Assembly: GCA_048882385.1 (NCBI GenBank)
Contig: JBHLRQ010000002.1
Location: forward strand, 1-64,000
DNA length: 64,000 nucleotides
Origin: Candidatus Thorarchaeota archaeon
GTDB taxonomy: Archaea > Asgardarchaeota > Thorarchaeia > Thorarchaeales > Thorarchaeaceae
Direction: 5' to 3'
The position numbers and the translations under genes were made by a program. Below the pieces are notes generated by a model. The model was given only the letters and a program-made list of their open reading frames with translations. It made no database searches and was not told the origin of the DNA. Below, piece after piece: positions 18,495 through 58,888 of the stretch; positions within the stretch are counted from its first letter, which is position 1; every line of letters begins with the position of its first letter.

Positions 18495-21400
18495 TTATTG
18501 CTCCTTTTCTTTGTCTTCCTTCTTGGCTTCTTCTTCAGCTTCTTTTTGAAGGATAGACTCCACATCCTGCACAAATGCTTCCATTGGATCCAATTCAGGT
18601 TCTGGTTCTGCTTCGGGTTCTTTCACAACCTCTGCCACTTCCTCTTCCTCCTCTTTTGGTATCTCATATTCTAATTCTCCAATAGGTTTCAGCATCTCAT
18701 CAGAACCGTCAGCCAAGGCTAATCCTTGTCTCTGAAGAATTGTCTGGATTCCAATTGGAACAATCACTCCTCTGTCTTGGAGATGTAGAAGTCTATCCAA
18801 GACCTGTGCTTCAGTCCTATCCAACATCTCACCGAGAGGTTTCAAGAGATTCTTTAGATAGAACTCACCTCTTTCGTCTCGTACAGCACCTATGTAATCA
18901 AGGATCTTTGCATCCAATTTGGAAACTTTCTGTGTTGGACCAAACCTATGAGGAAGATGCCACGCATAATTGAAAGCTGAATTGAGAGTTGAAACAACCC
19001 ATTCTGGATCAAAACAATCAACAACTCCAGTCCATCCATCAAGGTCCTGGTCATATTGATTCTCAAACAGCTCAACAAAGAACTGGAGTCGGTCTCTCAA
19101 GAGTGGTGTCATTTCTCCTCCCAAGATAAGGATTCCAATGATGTATTGTCCACTGTAGCTGTTCAAACGAAGTCCATGATACTGAATCTCTTCTAAAGTT
19201 CCGCGAACACCATCACCCTTTATCTCTCCGTAAACACTGGTTATTGCAGCGATGAATCCGCTGATCAAATCTGGTTGAATCCGTTCCTCAGTGAATGGAT
19301 GATAGAACACACAAGTCCCTCTATCAAGATATACTGCCATGAAGTGCTGGATTGTTTCAAGGTCTCTAAACATCTGAAGCTGGTTTTCGAGTCCCTTCTT
19401 TGCAGCCTTCTTTTTCGGTTTTACAGTCCTGTTATATCCAGTGGCCACAATACCTAGTAGAGCTATAGCAAATACAATCATGAGGCCAATGCCGCTGGTG
19501 AAGAATGCTAACAGAAGAGAAAGTGGACTGACGCCGACTCCTGCAACTTCAGTCATCTCTGCATTCCATCTTGTTCTGCTCCCATCATAGATGGCACGTG
19601 CAGTCAGTCTGTCAACATTTCCAAAGGGAACTTGGAAACCAACTGATGCAACACCTTCTGTATTGGTGGTGTCAGTCATTGTCGGACCAGTGTATTGGAT
19701 AACTGTGCCGTTGTCAAAATGCACAGAAACTTCGAAGCGTATCAATTCTCCCGGTATTGCGGGATTACCAGTATTGTTAGACCTCAGAGTTGCTATGACT
19801 TCCATGAACTGACCAGCAATCAGGTCTCCATCGAATGTCACCTGTAGATAGACTGCTTCCTTGGCAAGAACTGTAAAGTCAGTCTGGCTCGTAGCAGTCA
19901 CAGCGTATTGAGCAGAAGCAGAAACATCGATTGTGTAAGAACCGGGCGAAGATTCCAGAATAATCTCTATGGTATAGACTCCAGCTGAATATTCAAGAAC
20001 ATAGTCTGTTCCGTCCAATGTCATAGTGACAGTAGCGCTTGTGATTGCTGTATTGAATACTGAGTCTTCATAGGTCACTGTGACTGTGAGGTTCCACTCC
20101 TCATATTCAGAACTGACATGCACAACGTCAATTGTAGTTGTAGCACTTACGGTCAGATTGAGTTCCATTTGGTCAGAAACATAACCCGTCCTTTCGACGT
20201 ACACATTGAATGTTTCAATTCCTCTTGTGTTGTCTGGGACAATATTGAAGGTGTATAGTCCTCCAGCTCCTGCCAATAATTGATAGGGATTACCAAAAGC
20301 AATGAACGATACATTCGCATCTGTAATTGGGCTACCAGTCGAATCTGTCAGAGTGATGGTAAGAGGAACACTCGTGGCATAGTCAGTAGTTTCAGAATCT
20401 CCAGACCACGAGCTACTGAGATTTGGAGTGTCTTCATATACAATGAAAGTTGCAGTATCGTTTCGCGTGGTGTACCCATCAGCTGTAGCTCTGACCATAA
20501 TATCCCAAGCACCAAGGTAGTTAGATCCCAAAAGAGTAACTTCCCATTTTGCTGATATAGGGTTAAATACAAGATTAACTGGCGCTGATCCGTTGAATGT
20601 GACTCGTACAACAGTGTTACTATCAATTGGAACTGAACTATAATTATATGTGACTTGAATGAATAGACTCTCAATATATGAGATGTTCAGAGTAGATGGA
20701 TTATACTCTACACCGAATACCTCTCCTGTCTGACTGCCAATTGTGATCATGATTGTGGCATCAAATTGGGCTTCGTATCCTGCTTTCCAAGCACTCACAT
20801 TCAAAGCAAAAGTTCCTGGAACTCCTGTGAAGTTCTCACCAGTTAGTTCAATCCACCAAGTTTCTGTTAGTGGGTCCCAAGCCATGTCATATGTCGACCC
20901 CTGGAATGTTACATTGACTGTTGCGCTTGTGATTCTTGTATCATCAAGCATTCTATAAGTCACAGTGAGATTTGTACTATCCAAATATGCAATGTCATTT
21001 GTGTTTGACCAGCTCCAGTTGAGAGCCCGGGTCTCATGAATCAGCGTTACACTTACTGTTAGACTGAGGTTCTCAAGAGCAGATCCCTCAGCATAGATGT
21101 AAAGATTATAAACTCCATCAGCCATGGAAGTGGTCGAAACTGTTGCTGTCCATCTACCTCCACCACCGTCAATTAGCGAGGTGTTACCGGATCCAAAATC
21201 ATAGGAAACTGCAGCAAGAGAAATATCAAGTCCTCTGGCTGGGAAAATTTGGTCAAAGTTCACTCCAATGTCAAATGTGTTTTCAGTAAAAGCTGATATG
21301 ACCATATTATCTGCAACCAAAGTAGTTGCATAATAGACAAAAACATCTGCTACAGAGTATCCAGCTTCTGTTCCATTTGTCCAAAATACTTCAATTGAAT

Positions 21401-22922
21401 GTGTCCCGTTCCCAGTGGTATAGGCACTTATGTCCCAGATGAATGAAGACAAACCCTCAGTTGCAGTTGTTTCAACGGGGGAATAAATTTGACTACCAGA
21501 CTGAAGGACTGTTAGATTTGTTGTTCCACCATTCAAAGGATTACTCAAGCTATCCTCGATTGTTGCATTGATATCAAGATCTACAAGGATACTAACTTGT
21601 CCACCTACTACTGAATCATCGGATCTGTCGAAAATGTCGAGAGCAGTGATGTAATTAGGTGCTGATGATGACAATGTCCAAGCTCCATCAGTCATTGCAA
21701 TACATTGAACGGTTGTACCATATTTCGTATTTGTGCCAACAATTGGAGTCGATCCATTATACAGATTTATCGGATTCCAGTCTGACTGTACTGTGAAGTT
21801 GAGAAACCGATTGAGGGTACCAGAAACGGAAGGATAGGTAATAGTTGTAGAAGAGTTCCATTCTACATTGGATAAAGGCGTATCTGAAAACCAATTTGTA
21901 AAAGCTGTACCTGTTTTCTTGTACCAGAGAGTTAAATCATAATCCACATACGCAGACTGGTTAGTGTTCAATTTTATTGATGTAATATTAGCTAGTTCAT
22001 TTGTAAATGTCCATGAAAATCCAGTCATAGTACTCGAATTCGCTTGTAGTGATAGACTCTCCGGATTGAAGAATTGGAGTGCTGTATCAGAAGTTCTATT
22101 CCATGGAATATAGGTATAGTTGAAGAGAGGTTCAAGAGTGGCAGGCTGCCATACACCATTTCCCATAATGTAGGAATTGAATACTCCTGGTGCATCCTCT
22201 GAACCCCAGTAGATGCTTGGAAGCGTTGGGATCGGTAATCCTGCTTTCTTAAGTAGTGAACCATTGATTATTGCCCAGTATATTGAGTTTGCATCAAGCT
22301 CTGCAGATTCTCCTGGAATGGTTGACCACAAAAAGACGGCATCATGAGCTGTCATGTTAACTCGAGACGTGATTGCAGATGATGTTGTGTAGTCGCTCAT
22401 AATAGAGAATGATGCATTTCCTCTTGTAGACGGAGTATAGTCATCGGTACTATAGTATATTGAGTAATTTTGTAATGAACCATTGAACGGTTGATTATAG
22501 AACCCTTGAGCTAGTTGGGAATAATTTGTTGGGCCTGATTCAAGTATCCAAAAGAACGGATTTTCATAAGTGACTCCCAATACTTCTCTTTCAGGTGCAG
22601 CCTTTAGACTACTCACATCCATTTCTACTTTATAGATATGCCAGCCCGGTATAAGATATCCAGAAAGGTCAACGTCGCCCGAATGCACAACTGTGTTGGA
22701 ATATGTGTTTAGAATTGTTGTCTGCAAAGTGTTCAGAGCTCTTGACATATATGCTGATGTCGGAAGTGTGACTCCTGCTTGACCCGCTGATGACAGAGTA
22801 AGCGTAGGTTCTTGAACTCTGTTGGTGATTGAAACAGGACTGGTAATATCAAACTGATTTATTGTTGTAGGAATGGTCAACATAAATAAGACAATTACCA
22901 ACGAAATGGTCGTCTTTCGCAT
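18495..22922 (-). CDS. Single-pass surface protein: signal peptide, large ectodomain with Ig-like repeats, TM helix, cytoplasmic longin-like + winged-helix domains, acidic tail
   Basis: MRKTTISLVIVLFMLT; T/S/N-rich beta repeats (A.K.GY, A.ADGY); TM near 19440-19525; GTCVFYHPF...IQPDLISGFIAAITSVYGEI. Confidence 0.8.
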   Translation of the reverse strand: MRKTTISLVIVLFMLTIPTTINQFDITSPVSITNRVQEPTLTLSSAGQAGVTLPTSAYMSRALNTLQTTILNTYSNTVVHSGDVDLSGYLIPGWHIYKVEMDVSSLKAAPEREVLGVTYENPFFWILESGPTNYSQLAQGFYNQPFNGSLQNYSIYYSTDDYTPSTRGNASFSIMSDYTTSSAITSRVNMTAHDAVFLWSTIPGESAELDANSIYWAIINGSLLKKAGLPIPTLPSIYWGSEDAPGVFNSYIMGNGVWQPATLEPLFNYTYIPWNRTSDTALQFFNPESLSLQANSSTMTGFSWTFTNELANITSIKLNTNQSAYVDYDLTLWYKKTGTAFTNWFSDTPLSNVEWNSSTTITYPSVSGTLNRFLNFTVQSDWNPINLYNGSTPIVGTNTKYGTTVQCIAMTDGAWTLSSSAPNYITALDIFDRSDDSVVGGQVSILVDLDINATIEDSLSNPLNGGTTNLTVLQSGSQIYSPVETTATEGLSSFIWDISAYTTGNGTHSIEVFWTNGTEAGYSVADVFVYYATTLVADNMVISAFTENTFDIGVNFDQIFPARGLDISLAAVSYDFGSGNTSLIDGGGGRWTATVSTTSMADGVYNLYIYAEGSALENLSLTVSVTLIHETRALNWSWSNTNDIAYLDSTNLTVTYRMLDDTRITSATVNVTFQGSTYDMAWDPLTETWWIELTGENFTGVPGTFALNVSAWKAGYEAQFDATIMITIGSQTGEVFGVEYNPSTLNISYIESLFIQVTYNYSSVPIDSNTVVRVTFNGSAPVNLVFNPISAKWEVTLLGSNYLGAWDIMVRATADGYTTRNDTATFIVYEDTPNLSSSWSGDSETTDYATSVPLTITLTDSTGSPITDANVSFIAFGNPYQLLAGAGGLYTFNIVPDNTRGIETFNVYVERTGYVSDQMELNLTVSATTTIDVVHVSSEYEEWNLTVTVTYEDSVFNTAITSATVTMTLDGTDYVLEYSAGVYTIEIILESSPGSYTIDVSASAQYAVTATSQTDFTVLAKEAVYLQVTFDGDLIAGQFMEVIATLRSNNTGNPAIPGELIRFEVSVHFDNGTVIQYTGPTMTDTTNTEGVASVGFQVPFGNVDRLTARAIYDGSRTRWNAEMTEVAGVGVSPLSLLLAFFTSGIGLMIVFAIALLGIVATGYNRTVKPKKKAAKKGLENQLQMFRDLETIQHFMAVYLDRGTCVFYHPFTEERIQPDLISGFIAAITSVYGEIKGDGVRGTLEEIQYHGLRLNSYSGQYIIGILILGGEMTPLLRDRLQFFVELFENQYDQDLDGWTGVVDCFDPEWVVSTLNSAFNYAWHLPHRFGPTQKVSKLDAKILDYIGAVRDERGEFYLKNLLKPLGEMLDRTEAQVLDRLLHLQDRGVIVPIGIQTILQRQGLALADGSDEMLKPIGELEYEIPKEEEEEVAEVVKEPEAEPEPELDPMEAFVQDVESILQKEAEEEAKKEDKEKEQ

Positions 22923-42520: not shown

Positions 42521-43795
42521 ATGCCTGTAACAGATTTGCCCTCGGTCCTTAAGATTAAAGATCCAATCCATGGTTATGTGTCACTCACAGCACTAGAAAA
42601 GGGGATTATCGATCTACGTTTGACTCAAAGATTGAGGTATATTCAGGGTCCTGCAGGACTTTCTCTTGTTTATCCGGGAGCAGCAATCTCTCTGATGGGA
42701 CGAACTCTTGGATTCATGTATATGAGTGAGCTCTTCTTTGAGTATCTTGGAGGAGAATTGGATGAGGTTCTCAGTGGTAGGTTAGCATCATTACTCCTTA
42801 TGCTGACAAACGGCCCCTGGGCTAACGTTTCAGAGGAATATCTTACTGTTCGTGGTCTTAATCGACCAAGGATATGCGAGATTATTATCAATGAAACTGA
42901 AGTTGGAGATCTAGTTGAGGAGCATGGGTTCACAAAGTCTGAAGTTGTGAGTTTGATTACTAAAGGGGTCCCAATCAAGGGTGTTTATTTAGACTTGCTT
43001 CATTGTCCAATCAATCCCGAGTTGATTGATGATTTAGAACGTGATTCATACTTTGCAGGAGTTGAATATGCTCAGCTAGAATTTCGAAGACTCTTTTCAT
43101 CAACAAGGATTGCTAAGAACAAGATAGCTGTTGAAAGAGGGTCTCTATTCACACTTGAATCGTATCTATCTGCATCTGCCAATATGTTTGATGCAGTGTA
43201 TTTCCACAAAACTGTGAGAGCTGCAGAACTCATGTTATTGCGGGTTCTTGATGAAGCTGGATCGCAGTTGTTCTCTCTACCGACCGAAGATCCTTCAAAT
43301 TTCTTCTGCTGTGATGACCTGACGTTTCTTCATCGATTGCTTCACGTCGAGCAAGAAGATACAGAGGAGCTGCAGACTGCAAATCGAATCTATAGTGACT
43401 TTAGTAGGAGGAATCTCATTAAACTCGTCAGTTCTAGAGCTCTGTCAGACCCTGTATTTCTTTCTAAGTTGTCAACAGCAGATGGATTGTATGCAATCGA
43501 GAGAGAGATTGCTGAAGGTGCTGGAATTGATCAAAGCAATGTCTACATTGATTTTCCTGATCGACCATCAGTCACCTATTATCCCGGTCGCTTCAACTTG
43601 GAGGACCTTGTACTATTCGAGCGAGGGTCTAGTGGCTATGAGTTTTGGAGAGTAACAGATCTAAGTCCTATGGCAAGAAGCTTCTCAAGGATTTTGAAAC
43701 CAGTTCGTGTCTACACGACTCGAGGGTATAGAACTAAATTGAAAAAATCTGCAGATGCTGTCTTAGAGAGTGTTGATACTGCAGGAAGCAAGTAG
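42521..43795 (+). CDS. SAMHD1/YwfO-like HD-domain dNTPase homologue lacking the HD motif
   Basis: IKDPIHG, QRLRYI, VYPGA, RDSYFAGV.Y, VYFHKTVRAAELML are retained; LLLMLTNGPW replaces LLHDxGHGPF. Confidence 0.8.
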   Translation: MPVTDLPSVLKIKDPIHGYVSLTALEKGIIDLRLTQRLRYIQGPAGLSLVYPGAAISLMGRTLGFMYMSELFFEYLGGELDEVLSGRLASLLLMLTNGPWANVSEEYLTVRGLNRPRICEIIINETEVGDLVEEHGFTKSEVVSLITKGVPIKGVYLDLLHCPINPELIDDLERDSYFAGVEYAQLEFRRLFSSTRIAKNKIAVERGSLFTLESYLSASANMFDAVYFHKTVRAAELMLLRVLDEAGSQLFSLPTEDPSNFFCCDDLTFLHRLLHVEQEDTEELQTANRIYSDFSRRNLIKLVSSRALSDPVFLSKLSTADGLYAIEREIAEGAGIDQSNVYIDFPDRPSVTYYPGRFNLEDLVLFERGSSGYEFWRVTDLSPMARSFSRILKPVRVYTTRGYRTKLKKSADAVLESVDTAGSK

Positions 43796-44446: not shown

Positions 44447-46720
44447 GTGTTTACATGCAAGCGTTGTGGTGACCCACTGTTCATTCATACTGCAGAATTG
44501 AAAGACAAGATTCTGAAAATGAATGTTCAGTGCCTTCGAGGTCACAAAAGTGTTCGGCGGCTTTCTGAGCACCAGGCAATGGAGATGGCTCCTGAGGTCT
44601 TCAAGAGGTTGTATATATGCACAGAGTGTGGGTCGAATATGACCCACATTGAAGAAAGAGGTAATGGGAACAAAATCGAATCCGTTTTTCTATGCCCAAT
44701 CCATGGGCCACAGAAGCGTGAGTTTCCACGAGCTTTTGGTTCAACAGTTGACCTTGTTGGAGCTGATGTAGATAGTCCTCGATCGATAATTGATTCTTTC
44801 AGATGTCCTCAATGTGGCCTCGTATACGCAGTCAATGAGATTGACCAACGTCGTGGAATTCTTGAGGTGGACACTCGTTGTGCAAATGGACACAAGACTA
44901 CAAGGTATTTACCAAGTAGTATTGACACTACCTTGCTGAAGAACATACTTCAGCGAGTTATACATTGTGACAAATGTGGTCTCCCAGGACATATTGTGTC
45001 TTTGGAAAATAAAGGAAATACTACAAGAGTCAATACATCATGTCCAATTCATGGCTTAGCCAAGAAAGATATTCTAAGCACGCAAGTAGATCTGCTTGAA
45101 CAGGCGTTTTCAGAGATTCCAGAAGATGCGGTAGTAAAATCGACATTGACCTCCCATGAATGCCGAAAACCCCTCGCAATTCGTGGGATTGAAGAGGTCA
45201 AACAGGGATACCGCCTCAGATGTATTTGTCCTGGAACAAAATATGCTTCTGACAGAGTACTGCCACTGACATGGAATGAATCTGTTCTGGATCGAATCAC
45301 AAGAGCCATCTTGACTTGTGATGAATGTGGTCATCTAACTCATATTCTAGATAAGAAAAAGAGCAAGAAGAACGTAGATTTCAGAATAGTCTGTCCAATT
45401 CATGGAGTCATGACCCGTGAAGCACCGCCTGATGTTTTCAAGAAAATTCAGAAGTGCGAATCCTCCATTGACAGAATGCCATCTATTGTACGAAGTCTGA
45501 GTTGTGAAAAATGTAGTATGCCTATGAATGTACGAGATGTGGAAGAGAAGAGGGGCCTTATTGAGTTTGATACAGAATGTCGCAATGGTCATCGAAGCAA
45601 CAGACTATTCATACCTGGACTTGATCAGGAAACTCTCTCAGGATTATACAAAAGGCTCTACCAATGTCCTGAATGTTATGAGTCACTTGATTTAGTCTAC
45701 ATTGAACCGCGTGGAAGGGAAGATAGAGTTGTTCTGTTATGTTCTTTACATGGCAAGACTGTATTAGACATTCCCCCAGACCACGCCGAGGCTATGCAAA
45801 GAGCCTACAATGAAATGCAAGAAGATAAGATAAAACCTCCAACCGAAGCACCCGCGCTGGATTCTTCAGAATCATTGGAAGTTTCAGCTGCAATGCAAGA
45901 TTCAGATGCAGGTGTGCAAGTACTACGAGGATGTGAAATCGTTGGAGGAAAATTCGACTATAAAGTCAAAATCAAGAATGATAGTGGATATGTAATCACA
46001 AATGTCACAGTAAGTATTGTTGCTTATCCTCAAGATTGTATGGAGCTTGCAGGAGAAACCGTGAAGACAATCTCTCGGATTGAAGTTGGTGGTTTCCGAA
46101 GTCCTCAGTTCACGCTCTATCCTACAAAAGACTGTGTACAAGGAAAAGTGGTAGCTACGGTTTCTTATATTGACTTTCTCGATCAGTTACACACCGTTAA
46201 CGTGGAGCCCTATCTGATAAGGTCTGTGTGTGATCTCCTTCAACCATTGAAAGAAACATCTGATGCATTCGAACTTGTCCTCACAGGACTGGAGAAAACC
46301 CAGCAGGAACAGACATTGGATTGGAATCCACAAGTATTGTATACAAAGGCTGAGAAGATACTCCCCGCCAAGAACTTCCATATCATTGATGCTGATGAGG
46401 AAATCATCGCTGGTGAGTTCATAGGAACCATCAGAGGATATGCTGAAGGCAAGTATACTCAAAATAAGGTGGCAGTCATATTACTCATCAGTGGACCCGA
46501 AAATGGAAGACATGCTAATGTGAGAGTTGAAGCATTGGGAGAAGACGCAGCAATGCTTCCTACTACAATCGACGAATTAGCAGACACAATGGACTCTTGG
46601 GTTTGCTTGAGGTGTGGAGCTCCACTCGAGGTTGAGCAAGTAGAAGAGATGGGAAAGCGATTTCCAATTCGCTGCAAATACTGTACTCATACGCTTACAA
46701 TAGCACTGTATATGCAATAG
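44447..46720 (+). CDS. Octa-repeat C3H metal-ribbon protein with adaptin/COPI appendage-like Ig+platform domain and C-terminal Zn ribbon
   Basis: 8 modules CxxC-x21-Cxx(GH/HG); YKVKIKNDSGYVITNVTVSI...VSY.D, DLLQPL; CLRC..CKYC. Confidence 0.75.
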   Translation: MFTCKRCGDPLFIHTAELKDKILKMNVQCLRGHKSVRRLSEHQAMEMAPEVFKRLYICTECGSNMTHIEERGNGNKIESVFLCPIHGPQKREFPRAFGSTVDLVGADVDSPRSIIDSFRCPQCGLVYAVNEIDQRRGILEVDTRCANGHKTTRYLPSSIDTTLLKNILQRVIHCDKCGLPGHIVSLENKGNTTRVNTSCPIHGLAKKDILSTQVDLLEQAFSEIPEDAVVKSTLTSHECRKPLAIRGIEEVKQGYRLRCICPGTKYASDRVLPLTWNESVLDRITRAILTCDECGHLTHILDKKKSKKNVDFRIVCPIHGVMTREAPPDVFKKIQKCESSIDRMPSIVRSLSCEKCSMPMNVRDVEEKRGLIEFDTECRNGHRSNRLFIPGLDQETLSGLYKRLYQCPECYESLDLVYIEPRGREDRVVLLCSLHGKTVLDIPPDHAEAMQRAYNEMQEDKIKPPTEAPALDSSESLEVSAAMQDSDAGVQVLRGCEIVGGKFDYKVKIKNDSGYVITNVTVSIVAYPQDCMELAGETVKTISRIEVGGFRSPQFTLYPTKDCVQGKVVATVSYIDFLDQLHTVNVEPYLIRSVCDLLQPLKETSDAFELVLTGLEKTQQEQTLDWNPQVLYTKAEKILPAKNFHIIDADEEIIAGEFIGTIRGYAEGKYTQNKVAVILLISGPENGRHANVRVEALGEDAAMLPTTIDELADTMDSWVCLRCGAPLEVEQVEEMGKRFPIRCKYCTHTLTIALYMQ

Positions 46721-46872
46721 AGGTTTTTACTTACAAGAAATATCGTGAAATGTTATTACAGATAATCGAAAATTGCCCAGAAATACCAATTTCATCAGCT
46801 ACGTAATACCTTTTAGGGACTTCCGCACATGACGAATAGTTTCATCGCCGCGTGCCAAGGTGGAGGAGAAGC

Positions 46873-48720
46873 TTGTTCACGTGTAAGAAATGTAAAGAGC
46901 CATTCTATGTTCAGGCTGGTGAACTGAGGGGACAAACACTTCGAGTTTACTGTCAATGCTTGAATGGTCATAAGGGGAAACGTGACGTTTCGAGATATCA
47001 AGCAGACAGTATGGCAAATGAAGTCTTTGAAGGAATCTTCACTTGCATTGAATGCGGTTCTACGATGTCACTAATGAATACTGATGTGGGTAGATCGAAG
47101 GCAGAATACACCTTCATTTGTCCAATCCACGGACCTCAGATGAGAGCAATACCTGCATTCTATCATACTGCTATCGCAGGAATGCAGGGAAGTATGAATA
47201 GTTCAAAATCCATCCTTGATTCATTGAGTTGTCCTAGATGTGGGGAAGTATTTGTTGCTCATGAAATCGCTGACAAAAAAGGTATCCTTGAAGTAAAAGC
47301 CCGTTGTCCGAATGGCCATAAGGAGATGCGCTTTATCCCAAAGGTCGCTGATGAATCTGTACTAAAGACAGTTGTAAAACGTCTCATTCATTGTGATGAA
47401 TGCGGTCTACCATGTCAGATATTGGAAACCCAACCTAAAGGCAACAAGGCCCGAGTTGAGATTTCGTGCCCAGCTCATGGGAAAGCCAAGAAGGAACTTC
47501 CCGCTGAGTATGCATGGATGTTTGAAGCCATCGTTGAGGCTATGTCTGAGGGAAGTATTGTACGTTCGATGCTGAACTGTCGTGACTGTGGATCTCCTGT
47601 TTCGATTAGGAGTATTGAACTTGATAAGATGAAATACAAACTCAAGTGTAGTTGCAAGAATGGTCACAATGTAGATCTTTCTCAACCAGTTGATTTGGAT
47701 GAAGAAGCTATAGATTCTATAATTAACGGTGTTTTGAAGTGTACTGATGGTGATTTAGTTTCTGATATCGTGGAAACCAAAGTTAGTGGAAACGATGTAG
47801 AATTGAAGTTGGTCTGTCCTATCCATGGAGACTTCAAAAAGAGTGTTGCAGTTGGAATCTATAAGCATCTAGAAGAACGTAATCCACACATTGATCGAAT
47901 GCCCTCAATTGAGGAGAGTCTAAAATGTTCGAAGTGTACTTCTCCAATGACCATTCGTGGAACTAAGGTGCGAGACAGTATTGTTGAATTAAAGATGGAA
48001 TGCAGAAATGGCCACGGAGATGGAAGATATCTGCATGTTGGAGCTGTGGAACCTGTTGTTGAACGGTTCTACCGTCAGCTGTATGAATGTCATAAGTGCC
48101 ATAATCCCTTGAATCTATCTTTGATTGAAGAAAAGAACGATAAATCGGAAGTGACACTAATGTGCGAACAACATGGCGAAAGCAAAGTGGAGATTCCGAG
48201 GGAACATGCTGCACTGGCTCGTGACGCATTTCTATCAACAATGAGCATGCAAGATTTGGAGATGATTCTTGAAACACGTTTACAAACAGAGAGAGCTGCA
48301 GAGTATCAAATAGACCCAGATGCTGATATTCAAGAGATGCTCGATATTGTAAATGATATTATAGAACAGCAAAGTGTGAAATTCATTGGAGAAAAGAGCG
48401 GAACAAAACATGGCGAGGAATCTTGGTTTTATGGAAAAGCCAGGTCCGGCACTGAATACATTGTGATCGGATCAGTTTCAAAAGAAAATCTGACAATGCG
48501 GATATCAGTTTCAAGTGATGATGAGAGTAAAATGGAAATGCTTCTATCCGAGATGCGAGACGGTCTCAGAGAAGTCCTACTCAAACTCCAAGCAAAAACT
48601 GGTGACACAGCTCCGAAAAAGATAGAGTGCGAACAATGTGGTGCGGCTCTGAAAAAACGTGCACTTCCAGGAGAAACTGTAATCTGTGATCATTGTGGAA
48701 CTCCATTACACTGGGCATAG
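46873..48720 (+). CDS. Paralogous octa-repeat C3H metal-ribbon protein with platform-like domain and C-terminal Zn ribbon
   Basis: TTG 46873 after GGAGGAG gives MFTCKKC, matching MFTCKRC of the neighbour (ORF track start 46852); 8 modules; CEQC..CDHC. Confidence 0.75.
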   Translation: MFTCKKCKEPFYVQAGELRGQTLRVYCQCLNGHKGKRDVSRYQADSMANEVFEGIFTCIECGSTMSLMNTDVGRSKAEYTFICPIHGPQMRAIPAFYHTAIAGMQGSMNSSKSILDSLSCPRCGEVFVAHEIADKKGILEVKARCPNGHKEMRFIPKVADESVLKTVVKRLIHCDECGLPCQILETQPKGNKARVEISCPAHGKAKKELPAEYAWMFEAIVEAMSEGSIVRSMLNCRDCGSPVSIRSIELDKMKYKLKCSCKNGHNVDLSQPVDLDEEAIDSIINGVLKCTDGDLVSDIVETKVSGNDVELKLVCPIHGDFKKSVAVGIYKHLEERNPHIDRMPSIEESLKCSKCTSPMTIRGTKVRDSIVELKMECRNGHGDGRYLHVGAVEPVVERFYRQLYECHKCHNPLNLSLIEEKNDKSEVTLMCEQHGESKVEIPREHAALARDAFLSTMSMQDLEMILETRLQTERAAEYQIDPDADIQEMLDIVNDIIEQQSVKFIGEKSGTKHGEESWFYGKARSGTEYIVIGSVSKENLTMRISVSSDDESKMEMLLSEMRDGLREVLLKLQAKTGDTAPKKIECEQCGAALKKRALPGETVICDHCGTPLHWA

Positions 48721-58085: not shown

Positions 58086-58279
58086 GGGTTGAACCTCGAG
58101 TCTAGTATGGCGAACTGTAGATCTGCATCCTCCCGCGTTTCAGACAAAGATCTTGGCGCGTCTATGAGGATTAGACTCACAGATGCTTTTGAGCCTTCTA
58201 GTGATGTATACCAAAATGTGTGATTTTGTCCTACGGTCACCCTTATAGGAATAGAATGGGCTCTCAAGGTTTGATAGCT

Positions 58280-58888
58280 ATGTCAGAGAAAGAAGGGTCC
58301 GGAATCATCTGTCCCTCTTGTGAAAAGGGTGCATTAAATGTACGCTCTACACTCTATAGCATTCCCTTCTTCAATGAGCTTGCTATGTTCTCGATGAACT
58401 GTCCTCATTGCAACTTCAGCCATTCCGATGTCTTTTCTGCCGAAGAGAGAAAGCCAGCAAGGTTTACTCTTTATGTCAGTGATTCGTCACTTCTCCGTGC
58501 GAGAGTTGTAAGGTCAGGTTCAGGAACATTTCGACTTCCTGAGTTTGGAATCGATGTGGAACCCGGACCTGCAGCAGAATCCTTCATCACTAATGTGGAG
58601 GGTGTATTGTTACGCGTCAAGTCTGTCGTGGAAACTGCAATTGGATTTGCAGATGCTCCTGAGGAGAAAGCACGTGGGATTGAGATCCTTTCAAAAATAG
58701 ACAGAGCTCTTGCTGGTGATATTTCATTCTCATTGATCATGGAGGACCCCGTTGGAGTCAGCGGCATTATCCTCGATGATATGTCAAAGGTAAAGTATGA
58801 GGAGCTCAGTGCTGAAGAAGCTTCAAAATTAAAAGGTGCCCCCTTTTGGATTGATTCAATCCGTGAAGACTACTCAACTCAGGAATAG
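58280..58888 (+). CDS. ZPR1 zinc-finger domain protein (archaeal type)
   Basis: CPSC, IPFF, CPHCNF, RVVRS, IDVEPGP..ESFITNVEGVL, LIMEDP.G.S.I. Confidence 0.92.
   Translation: MSEKEGSGIICPSCEKGALNVRSTLYSIPFFNELAMFSMNCPHCNFSHSDVFSAEERKPARFTLYVSDSSLLRARVVRSGSGTFRLPEFGIDVEPGPAAESFITNVEGVLLRVKSVVETAIGFADAPEEKARGIEILSKIDRALAGDISFSLIMEDPVGVSGIILDDMSKVKYEELSAEEASKLKGAPFWIDSIREDYSTQE

Follow-up and report, generated by a model that had tools for sequence, protein, structure and literature searches.

Two neighbouring genes in a 64,000-nucleotide stretch of a Candidatus Thorarchaeota contig (the whole stretch analysed, hereafter the window) encode collinear paralogues, P1 and P2, in which an array of small Cys3His modules is followed by a C-terminal region of a different kind. 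With modest confidence, we regard P1 and P2 as Thorarchaeota-specific scaffolds or adaptors that are soluble and cytoplasmic, having a zinc-ribbon trunk with structural Zn and, as the partner-binding end, an adaptin/COPI-type ear. An initial annotation had proposed a scaffold or a redox wire; the scaffold role is plausible as a prediction, and a protein-interaction scaffold with structural zinc is our best reading, preferred over the wire.

Architecture of the repeat arrays

The features are listed in Table 1. Both proteins begin with MFTCKxC, as the initial annotation stated, given the starts GTG 44447 for P1 and TTG 46873 for P2. The longest ORF of P2 opens at a GTG further upstream; TTG 46873 is the likely start, because it lies 6 nt past a GGAGG motif and the orthologues start there.

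Table 1. Features of the P1 and P2 genes (window coordinates)
Feature	Position	Strand	Remarks
P1 gene	44447..46720	+	757 aa, GTG start; orthologues at 58-91% identity
P1 array, four two-ribbon units (8 modules)	44447..45832	+	motifs, pLDDT about 85-94, unit profile matches
P1 module 5, degenerate (aa 236-265)	45152..45241	+	first Cys to Ser, final His lost
P1 hinge (aa 463-488)	45833..45910	+	acidic; disorder predicted; conservation low
P1 Ig-like beta-sandwich (aa 489-597), ear first half	45911..46237	+	structure matches
P1 alpha/beta platform (aa 598-716), ear second half	46238..46594	+	two-domain COPI/AP-2 matches
P1 C-terminal Cys4 zinc ribbon, putative (C720, C723, C743, C746)	46595..46717	+	
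P2 longest ORF	46852-48720	+	GTG start, 622 aa
GGAGG, ribosome-binding-like motif before P2 start	46862..46866	+	
P2 gene, likely TTG start	46873..48720	+	615 aa; orthologue matches begin at residue 5-8
P2 array, four two-ribbon units (8 modules)	46873..48240	+	motifs, unit profile matches; unit 2 modelled
GGT (Gly300), Cys in relatives; second ligand of P2 module 6	47749..47751	+	
P2 tail (ORF aa 464-585), platform half without Ig sandwich	48241..48606	+	hhalign
P2 C-terminal Cys4 zinc ribbon, putative (C593, C596, C612, C615)	48607..48717	+	

In both proteins, eight modules of the form CxxC-x21-CxxGH (odd) and CxxC-x21-CxxHG (even) alternate, making four copies of a two-module unit of 116-117 aa; the alternation is as had been described. 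In P1, CxxC occurs at positions 4, 58, 120, 174, 291, 353 and 407, with the closing knuckle 21 residues on (C..GH at 29, 145 and 378; C..HG at 83, 199, 316 and 432), and the units span aa 1-116, 117-232, 233-349 and 350-462. The P2 array occupies ORF aa 8-463, with CxxC at 11, 65, 127, 181, 243, 359 and 413, C..GH at 36, 152, 268 and 384, and C..HG at 90, 206, 322 and 438. The two proteins align with 37% identity over 454 residues and one gap (E 6e-121), and they also align when shifted by one or two units (E 4e-28 and 5e-31), showing that the likeness of the repeats is not due to chance.

Each protein was said to carry one degenerate module, and not the same one. The modules were correctly named (no. 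5 in P1, no. 6 in P2), but the two degeneracies are not equivalent. Module 5 of P1 reads SHEC...CICPGT, and none of 38 P1-type rows has its first Cys; the dead module is a conserved trait. Module 6 of P2, on the other hand, reads CTDG...CPIHG through a single T-to-G change (TGT to GGT) at a Cys that is kept in all 21 related loci covering the site and in 40 of the 42 P2-type proteins compared. Two further sequencing runs (X2 and X8) yielded contigs with the same G, and one close relative (P0185) shares Gly300, so the Cys-to-Gly change is a real, lineage-private substitution.

Ligand conservation among 120 units is complete for C15, C37, C66 and C91 and at least 90% for C69, H41 and H94. P1 would offer seven intact Cys3His sites and one Cys4 site, and P2 seven intact sites, one three-ligand site and one Cys4 site, so that the earlier figure of up to ~16 metal ions for the pair was a fair one (about 16-17 predicted sites).

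Predicted fold and metal binding of the two-ribbon unit

The model of one unit (P2 unit 2) is a single compact body (pLDDT 96.2, pTM 0.88), in which knuckle, hairpin, knuckle and strand follow one another in the order of a zinc ribbon. According to DSSP, C12 and C15 of the first module precede a hairpin at 20-36, which is followed by C37 and H41 and then by a strand at 42-48; the second module is laid out like the first. The unit model therefore supports the proposal that the modules are metal-binding, with each predicted to have two knuckles, a beta-hairpin and a third strand. The same layout is seen in classical zinc ribbons, e.g., the NrdR N-terminus, L33 and the eIF2-beta C-terminus, and the NrdR ribbon superposes on single modules over 41 residues (rmsd 1.6-1.7, with a low Z of 2.9). 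However, the modules differ from classical ribbons in their Cys3His ligand set, whose second knuckle alternates between CxxxH and CxxH, and in that two ribbons and three helices are merged into a rigid 116-aa unit.

Searches with the whole unit returned no solved counterpart (best Z 3.9 among 48,161 chains) and, by Foldseek, nothing at E ≤ 0.001. Among the 16 modules, Pfam assigned the generic Zn_ribbon_recom (PF13408) to one only, i.e., P2 residues 59-90 (33.2 bits, above the gathering cut-off of 25.3), whereas the equivalent P1 module scored 17.0 bits, below that cut-off. A large serine recombinase was considered and rejected, as neither Pfam nor NCBIfam gave a resolvase catalytic or recombinase domain at E ≤ 1; the XisF model scored 8.8 bits, far from its cut-off of 375. 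The DUF723, DUF4379 ("probable treble clef") and CapR-homology finger arrays share with P1 and P2 the use of small repeated Cys/His modules, but the likeness spans less than one whole module. DUF723 scored 16.3 bits on P1 (cut-off 20.9) and gave no score on P2, and four proteins (P0142, P0155, P0165 and P0167) weakly match P2 over ~27 residues around CPxHG. No array family was matched in NCBIfam or among PDB sequences. The earlier remark that no described family was recognised holds for the array, which lies outside curated families; the kind of ear at the C-terminus is already known. The unit itself has no Pfam model and no solved counterpart, and it occurs in 1-4 copies in several Asgard lineages. 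Together with the very high confidence of the model, this recommends the 116-aa double-ribbon unit for structure determination and as the basis of a new domain family.

The many Cys-rich sites lying close together could suggest an iron-binding electron wire with rubredoxin-like centres in series, and tetraether synthase carries a rubredoxin-like cap. However, the rubredoxin family PF00301 reaches 13.1 bits (cut-off 23), from a 9-residue stretch, and neither protein contains a radical SAM or other redox domain (Pfam and NCBIfam, E ≤ 1). When the unit profile was compared with PDB sequences at E ≤ 10, 15 weak matches were returned, none named tetraether synthase, and in the unit model every module shows the topology of a zinc ribbon, one of its ligands being a His. 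In addition, sites have been lost while the gene was kept, and neither flanking gene codes for a protein with a redox cofactor (Fe-S or haem); downstream lies a UbiX-like Flavoprotein-family ORF on the opposite strand. With nothing found in its favour, the wire is extremely improbable, and we infer zinc rather than iron. Membership in the GDGT/tetraether synthase radical SAM family was likewise rejected, since that family's radical SAM core is absent at the same E-value limit.

The arrays might instead bind RNA or DNA, their zinc ribbons being of the ribosomal or transcription type. The best sequence matches, weak as they are, are indeed nucleic-acid-associated (L33 at E 0.17, eIF2-beta and ZPR1), the weak structure matches include NrdR and a chain of the 50S ribosomal subunit, P1 unit 3 has a pI of 9.3, and one source names relatives as RPC12/Elf1/topoisomerase Zn-ribbon. 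However, all of these ribbon matches fall below any threshold, and the names are generic automatic labels. Charges within the arrays almost balance (net +5 and -2 over about 460 residues), the tails are acidic, and the best-conserved part of P1 is its ear, a protein-binding fold. Nucleic-acid binding is therefore unlikely.

The C-terminal ear

The earlier description of the proteins as eight modules is right as far as the arrays go, but it overlooked the C-termini: the modules stop at residue 462 in P1 and 463 in P2, and the remaining 295 and 159 residues form a different, recognisable module. In the model of whole P1 (pLDDT 82.7), the array is followed by a stretch predicted to be disordered (466-487), where pLDDT falls below 50 at 466-469 and 472-487; this hinge has a net charge of -5 and a mean pairwise identity of 34.6%. 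By the same measure the Ig sandwich reaches 85%, the platform 77% and the units 56-70% (hinge 35%), i.e., conservation within P1 is highest in the ear, and the four Cys of the terminal ribbon do not vary across 60 rows. The platform is modelled with less confidence (pLDDT mainly 66-80, dropping under 50 at 595-616).

Foldseek matched the P1 ear to the AP-2 alpha appendage (E 2e-7, probability 1.00), and also to the beta2 appendage, COPI 9qpq_H and BBSome subunits. Using VIA-align, the two domains together gave Z 12.8 with 9qpq_H (220 of 243 residues), Z 11.1 with 1r4x (210 residues) and Z 10.7-10.9 with AP-2 alpha over 185-209 residues (9ppp_A, Z 10.9, 209 residues). P1 thus has the Ig sandwich followed by a platform that marks these appendages, although the rmsd values are large (5.9-8.5 Å), TM is just 0.32-0.46, and Ig-only matches to TRAP-beta, transglutaminase and lacto-N-biosidase score equally high (Z 11-12.8). 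No adaptin or coatomer family of Pfam was found at E ≤ 1; a language-model search reached eukaryotic alpha-adaptin appendage clusters at just 0.76, which is a lead.

Profile comparisons built from separate sequence sets place both tails in one archaeal family. The P1 ear matched the tails of 22 other proteins over 257 columns (probability 98.8, E 1e-16), and P2 matched the same tail family by hhalign at positions 121-284 of 289 (probability 99.9, E 1.3e-32), which corresponds to the platform-plus-ribbon half only. When the P1 and P2 tails were compared directly, the zinc ribbon alone was aligned (probability 79). Accordingly, P1 belongs to the archaeal ear-plus-Zn-ribbon tail module as a whole and P2 by its second half. 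At the N-terminus, the other ear-tailed proteins have TPR, an NHL propeller, a beta-helix, PCI or transmembrane parts.

Archaeal adaptin-appendage regions, consisting of an Ig domain and a TBP-like platform and in some cases a Zn ribbon, have been described by Makarova et al. 2024 (mBio 15:e00335-24), who report their combination with TPR, Ig and PCI domains in Asgard archaea and propose protein-interaction roles. These are the N-terminal partners seen on relatives of the P1 and P2 tails; an eight-module Cys3His array is not among the proteins described in the passages of that study covered here. The proteins in that study came via ESCRT neighbourhoods, whereas none of the 46 other ORFs of the present window matched an ESCRT, ubiquitin or trafficking family at E ≤ 1e-5. 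In short, the zinc unit is unlike solved structures, and the kind of ear is already published for archaea.

The appendages of COPI beta/gamma-COP and AP-2 alpha/beta2 (9qpq_H, 1r4x, 1w80, 1b9k, 1e42) resemble P1 in having an Ig sandwich and then an alpha/beta platform, and the P1 ear, as modelled, likewise sits at the C-terminus of a long trunk behind a flexible hinge. However, we note four differences. First, identity is 9-12%, without a sequence-family match. Second, the trunk of P1 and P2 is a zinc-ribbon array, and not the alpha-solenoid large subunit of a heterotetrameric adaptor. Third, the P1 platform is followed by an extra Cys4 ribbon. Fourth, P1 and P2 are not known to have AP or COPI partners. 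BBSome subunits BBS2/7/9 (6vbu, 6voa) share an ear-like sandwich and platform and are the top Foldseek rows for P1 (E 4e-9 to 1e-7), but whole-chain alignments are poor (TM 0.13-0.15, rmsd >30 Å), VIA-align aligns the sandwich alone (100-106 residues), and P1 and P2 lack a beta-propeller.

A hinge-borne ear behind a long rigid trunk is the layout of an adaptin large subunit in a different material, and P1 and P2 could correspond in archaea to the pair of large adaptin subunits, with the zinc-unit trunk replacing the alpha-solenoid, pairing where both are present, and with the ear recruiting partners that would also recognise ear-type tails on many membrane proteins of Asgard archaea. We consider this very unlikely; if true, it would represent an early cargo-adaptor machinery older than the coats of eukaryotes. 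Few Asgard features point towards eukaryotic vesicle-coat machinery, and ear-like domains are one of them; the binding partner of the ear would tell a sorting system, with any link to ESCRT that this might imply, from something unrelated.

For the scaffold reading that we prefer, the trunk would comprise four rigid 116-aa units, each of two three-stranded ribbons packed with helices, and each ribbon would probably be held by one structural Zn on Cys3His. In P1, this trunk would lead through the flexible acidic hinge to the ear and its Cys4 ribbon cap, and in P2 to platform and ribbon only. The ear-plus-ribbon module, which also terminates many other Asgard proteins, may act as the partner-binding end, and the zinc trunk as a stiff, multivalent surface or spacer.

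Distribution and duplication of the genes

A heterodimeric rod or filament of P1 and P2 had been proposed. Besides being collinear paralogues, the two lie side by side and in the same orientation in 14 of 22 related loci, module 5 of P1 could be a specialised surface given its conserved loss, and elsewhere in this genome, on a different contig, two further ear-like ORFs neighbour each other. However, P1 stands alone directly before UbiX in seven fetched regions of related genomes, which were chosen because their genomes showed just four unit matches, and P2 stands alone in the same slot in four loci (L011, L012, L013 and L030); a further locus (L018) has no P1 upstream. In the single-contig genome G236, the genes are 1.7 Mb apart, and 29 of the 62 matching genomes of the family have four unit matches, versus 26 with eight or nine. 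The tree shows one old P1/P2 duplication followed by separate losses. Given this old duplication, the solo loci and the 1.7 Mb separation, an obligate heterodimer is unlikely. The genes are also dispensable: of 76 genomes sampled from the same family, 15 show no copy, and seven of these 15 are at least 95% complete. P1 and P2 would thus be products of a single ancient duplication, each able to work without the other.

Zinc-Ribbon Array of P1 and P2

The adjacent paralogues P1 and P2 contain eight modules each, spaced by 54 and 62 residues, in which a CxxC knuckle is followed after 21 residues by a second knuckle, CxxGH in the odd-numbered and CxxHG in the even-numbered modules, as the initial annotation had described. 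The same motif scan locates a Cys4 ribbon at the C-terminal end of both proteins (C720/723/743/746 in P1, C593/596/612/615 in P2). The two sequences align over 454 residues with 37% identity and one gap (E 6e-121). Self-alignments shifted by one or two units give E values of 4e-28 and 5e-31, and therefore the four-fold repeat of a two-module unit, first put at about 115 residues, is real, with a length of 116–117 residues. Judging from the sequence, the likely start of P2 is TTG 46873, six bases 3′ of a GGAGG; from this codon the protein begins MFTCKKC, as do its orthologues, so that the MFTCK-type start suggested for P2 holds if this codon is used.

One degenerate module per protein had also been noted, and the motif scan agrees: module 5 of P1 (SHEC...CICPGT) has ligands missing, whereas in P2 it is module 6 (CTDG...CPIHG) that has a ligand missing. 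The first Cys of module 5 is absent in all 38 P1-type rows. Module 6 is intact in all 21 related loci covering that module and in 40 of the 42 P2-type proteins compared, and Gly300 in the P2 of the window is the result of a single T-to-G change. The same G occurs in contigs from two other sequencing runs, X2 (record 4, zero differences from the window) and X8 (record 21, two differences, both at other sites), and one close relative, the protein P0185, shares the glycine. The four runs compared all consist of contigs, and none of the 20 runs listed is an RNA data set. Gly300 is therefore a genuine substitution of the window's lineage.

A model of the unit (P2 residues 117–232), built with an alignment of 120 units, was predicted with high confidence (pLDDT 96.2, pTM 0.88) and shows three helices alternating with two three-stranded ribbons, with a helix at either end. 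The CxxC knuckle precedes each hairpin and the Cys/His knuckle comes after it, and this placement of knuckles on either side of a hairpin gives the unit a zinc-ribbon topology; both ribbons are packed into one rigid body in the predicted model. Cys3His ribbons in general bind structural zinc, and those of the unit would probably do the same. Nothing supports the earlier proposal that the array is a redox wire, which we consider very improbable.

Comparison of the unit model with 48,161 representative solved chains by VIA-align gave none at Z of at least 5 (best 3.9), and single ribbons of the unit align with NrdR over 41 residues (rmsd 1.6–1.7, Z 2.9). Foldseek returned no PDB match at E ≤ 0.001, the unit profile reached a best E of 0.17 against PDB chain sequences, and the P1 sequence had no match among PDB chains at E ≤ 1. 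The ESM Atlas search with the unit yielded unnamed clusters only (0.89–0.90). In Pfam, the array matches only Zn_ribbon_recom, in one P2 module (33.2 bits), the P1 counterpart of which scores 17.0 bits and falls below the cut-off, and an NCBIfam scan of P1 and P2 found nothing above its cut-offs. Thus, with no solved counterpart and nearly empty family scans, the unit consists of ordinary zinc ribbons, yet is undescribed as a two-ribbon domain, and the initial annotation, which recognised no described family with the architecture of the array, is borne out by the Pfam, NCBIfam, PDB, Foldseek and VIA-align searches. One alternative is that the array binds nucleic acid; however, the matches in its favour are all sub-threshold and the net charge of the arrays is close to zero (+5 and −2), and we regard this reading as unlikely.

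C-Terminal Ear of P1 and Tail of P2

The full-length P1 model (pLDDT 82.7) continues beyond the array with a hinge and an ear, i.e., an Ig sandwich plus platform, the parts of which are listed in the table together with the other features of the window.

Features of P1, P2 and other genes in the window (aa, residue numbers in P1)
Feature	Position	Strand	Remarks
P1 ORF, 757 aa	44447-46720	+	ORF call
P2 ORF, 622 aa	46852-48720	+	ORF call; adjacent to P1
P1 acidic disordered hinge	aa 466-487		pLDDT below 50; net charge -5
P1 beta-sandwich	aa 490-593		P1 model
P1 helix, less confident	aa 602-612		P1 model
P1 alpha/beta domain	aa 620-715		P1 model; followed by Cys4 ribbon
HD-associated-region protein	42521-43795	+	upstream of P1, same strand, in every related locus reaching that far
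Predicted membrane protein, 166 aa	43847-44347	+	acidic C-terminal tail; directly upstream of P1
Giant ORF, 1474 aa	18495-22919	-	no Pfam family at E ≤ 1e-5
Giant ORF, 3055 aa	23049-32216	-	no Pfam family at E ≤ 1e-5
ZPR1-type protein	58220-58885	+	ZPR1 zinc-finger and jelly-roll Pfam domains; 10 kb downstream

A Foldseek search with the P1 model retrieved BBSome subunits and the appendages of AP-2 alpha/beta2 and COPI (E 4e-9 to 1e-6, probability 1.00). Two-domain alignments were obtained by VIA-align with beta-COP (9qpq_H, Z 12.8, 220 of 243 residues), gamma-COP (1r4x, Z 11.1, 210 residues) and AP-2 alpha (Z 10.7–10.9, 185–209 residues), with rmsd values of 5.9–8.5 Å and with scores that sandwich-only matches, e.g., TRAP-beta and transglutaminase, equal. 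No appendage family scores on P1 or P2 in the Pfam scan. A language-model search with P1 residues 487–757 (window 45905–46717) returned eukaryotic alpha-adaptin appendage clusters at a low score (0.76), which we treat as a lead only, and an Asgard cluster with PCI, E3_UFM1_ligase and DDRGK families. Within P1, the ear is conserved better than the array, with mean pairwise identities of 85% in the sandwich, 77% in the platform, 56–70% in the units and 35% in the hinge.

A search with the P2 tail retrieves the C-termini of many other proteins, which carry TPR, NHL propeller, beta-helix, PCI or transmembrane segments at their N-termini. A first comparison of the tails was discarded because both alignments shared sequences, and profiles from non-overlapping sequence sets were used instead, with a 289-position tail module from 22 other proteins as the reference. 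The P1 ear matches this entire module (probability 98.8, E 1e-16); the P2 tail matches positions 121–284 only (probability 99.9, E 1.3e-32), and the sandwich is therefore absent from P2, which has only the platform and ribbon. When the two tails were compared directly, only the ribbon aligned, and thus the link between them runs through the wider tail family. Besides P1 and P2, the ear profile finds two ORFs in the window's own genome (G000) that lie close together on a different contig (431-aa and 373-aa frames, E 2.5e-26 and 2.9e-28, model positions 186–428). This second ear-like pair lies outside the window, at G000:C10:18729-19427 and 20899-21609.

The ear is of a known kind; the double-ribbon unit and the combination of trunk, hinge and ear represent variants not previously described. 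According to the accessible text of Makarova et al. (2024, mBio 15:e00335-24), ESCRT loci of archaea encode adaptin-appendage regions composed of an Ig and a TBP-like part, one type of which includes a Zn ribbon. The same text covers multidomain proteins of Asgard in which the appendage region occurs together with Vps28-C, longin, TPR, Ig and PCI domains, and for which a role as interaction hubs is proposed. The accessible portions of that paper, and of the Asgard/Thorarchaeota zinc-ribbon and appendage literature, do not mention a Cys3His array of eight modules. On balance, we lean towards P1 and P2 being putative soluble adaptors or scaffolds, in which a zinc-stabilised modular trunk would carry the ear, the ear would be the protein-binding part, and either paralogue could act alone.

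Genomic Neighbourhood

The neighbours of P1 and P2 in the window are metabolic or housekeeping genes, and none of the other 46 window ORFs matches an ESCRT, ubiquitin or trafficking family at E ≤ 1e-5. The order of genes is constant across related genomes: the HD protein comes first, in many cases followed by a small membrane protein, then come the slot (the P1/P2 site) and, on the opposite strand, UbiX and DUF2070. The 166-aa membrane protein is present in many related loci; it was considered as a partner and dropped, as no match was found beside P1 in the loci L019, L021, L023, L024, L029 and L031, and the gap is too short for a gene in L021, L024 and L031.

Distribution and State of the Slot

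Protein searches with P1 and P2 retrieved Asgard sequences only, most labelled Thorarchaeota, and the names of these relatives are all 'hypothetical' or generic automatic ones. Proteins with the unit that are more distantly related carry the labels Helarchaeota and Ranarchaeia and have one to four units, with the ear present or absent. The unit profile matches 110 of the 301 sampled genomes of the phylum and, within the window's family, 61 of 76 plus the window's genome. These 62 genomes comprise 26 with 8–9 matches, 3 with 6–7, 29 with 4 and 4 with 1–3; of the 15 family genomes without a match, seven have a completeness of 95% or more. The genome of the window yields no profile matches other than the eight units of P1 and P2.

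The slot holds P1 and P2 in 14 of 22 related loci and P2 with no P1 upstream in four (L011, L012, L013 and L018), and its state is indeterminate in the remaining four, where the contig begins inside P2. Nine additional regions were chosen since their genomes seemed single-copy or odd; P1 stands directly before UbiX in seven and P2 alone in one. The single-contig genome G236 has P1 in the slot and a P2-type gene, with one in-frame TAA, 1.7 Mb away. From the P1-only and P2-only slots it follows that each paralogue is retained alone in whole lineages, a distribution that speaks against an obligate form of the heterodimer proposed initially, which we consider improbable. The two proteins may still pair in genomes with both genes. 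Overall, the observations of the initial annotation are confirmed and its interpretation is partly supported.

In-frame stops were observed in otherwise intact relatives, namely a TAG in the P2-type gene of L011 (L011:4822-4824, a Glu position in L012), one TAA in the P2-type gene G236:C1:734593-736440 and one TAA in the P1-type gene G290:C132:152-1525; each may reflect an error of sequencing or a copy in decay.

History of Repeats and Duplication

In a tree of 48 units, sampled from 7 of the 30 sources that make up the alignment of 120 units, units 1, 2, 3 and 4 form one group each, which includes copies from both P1 and P2 (support 87–98), and the four-unit array is therefore older than the P1/P2 duplication. 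The grouping of units 1 and 3 versus 2 and 4 is weak (support 69). A tree of 39 arrays and one outgroup separates the 21 P1-type from the 18 P2-type sequences (support 99/98), which means that there was one old duplication.
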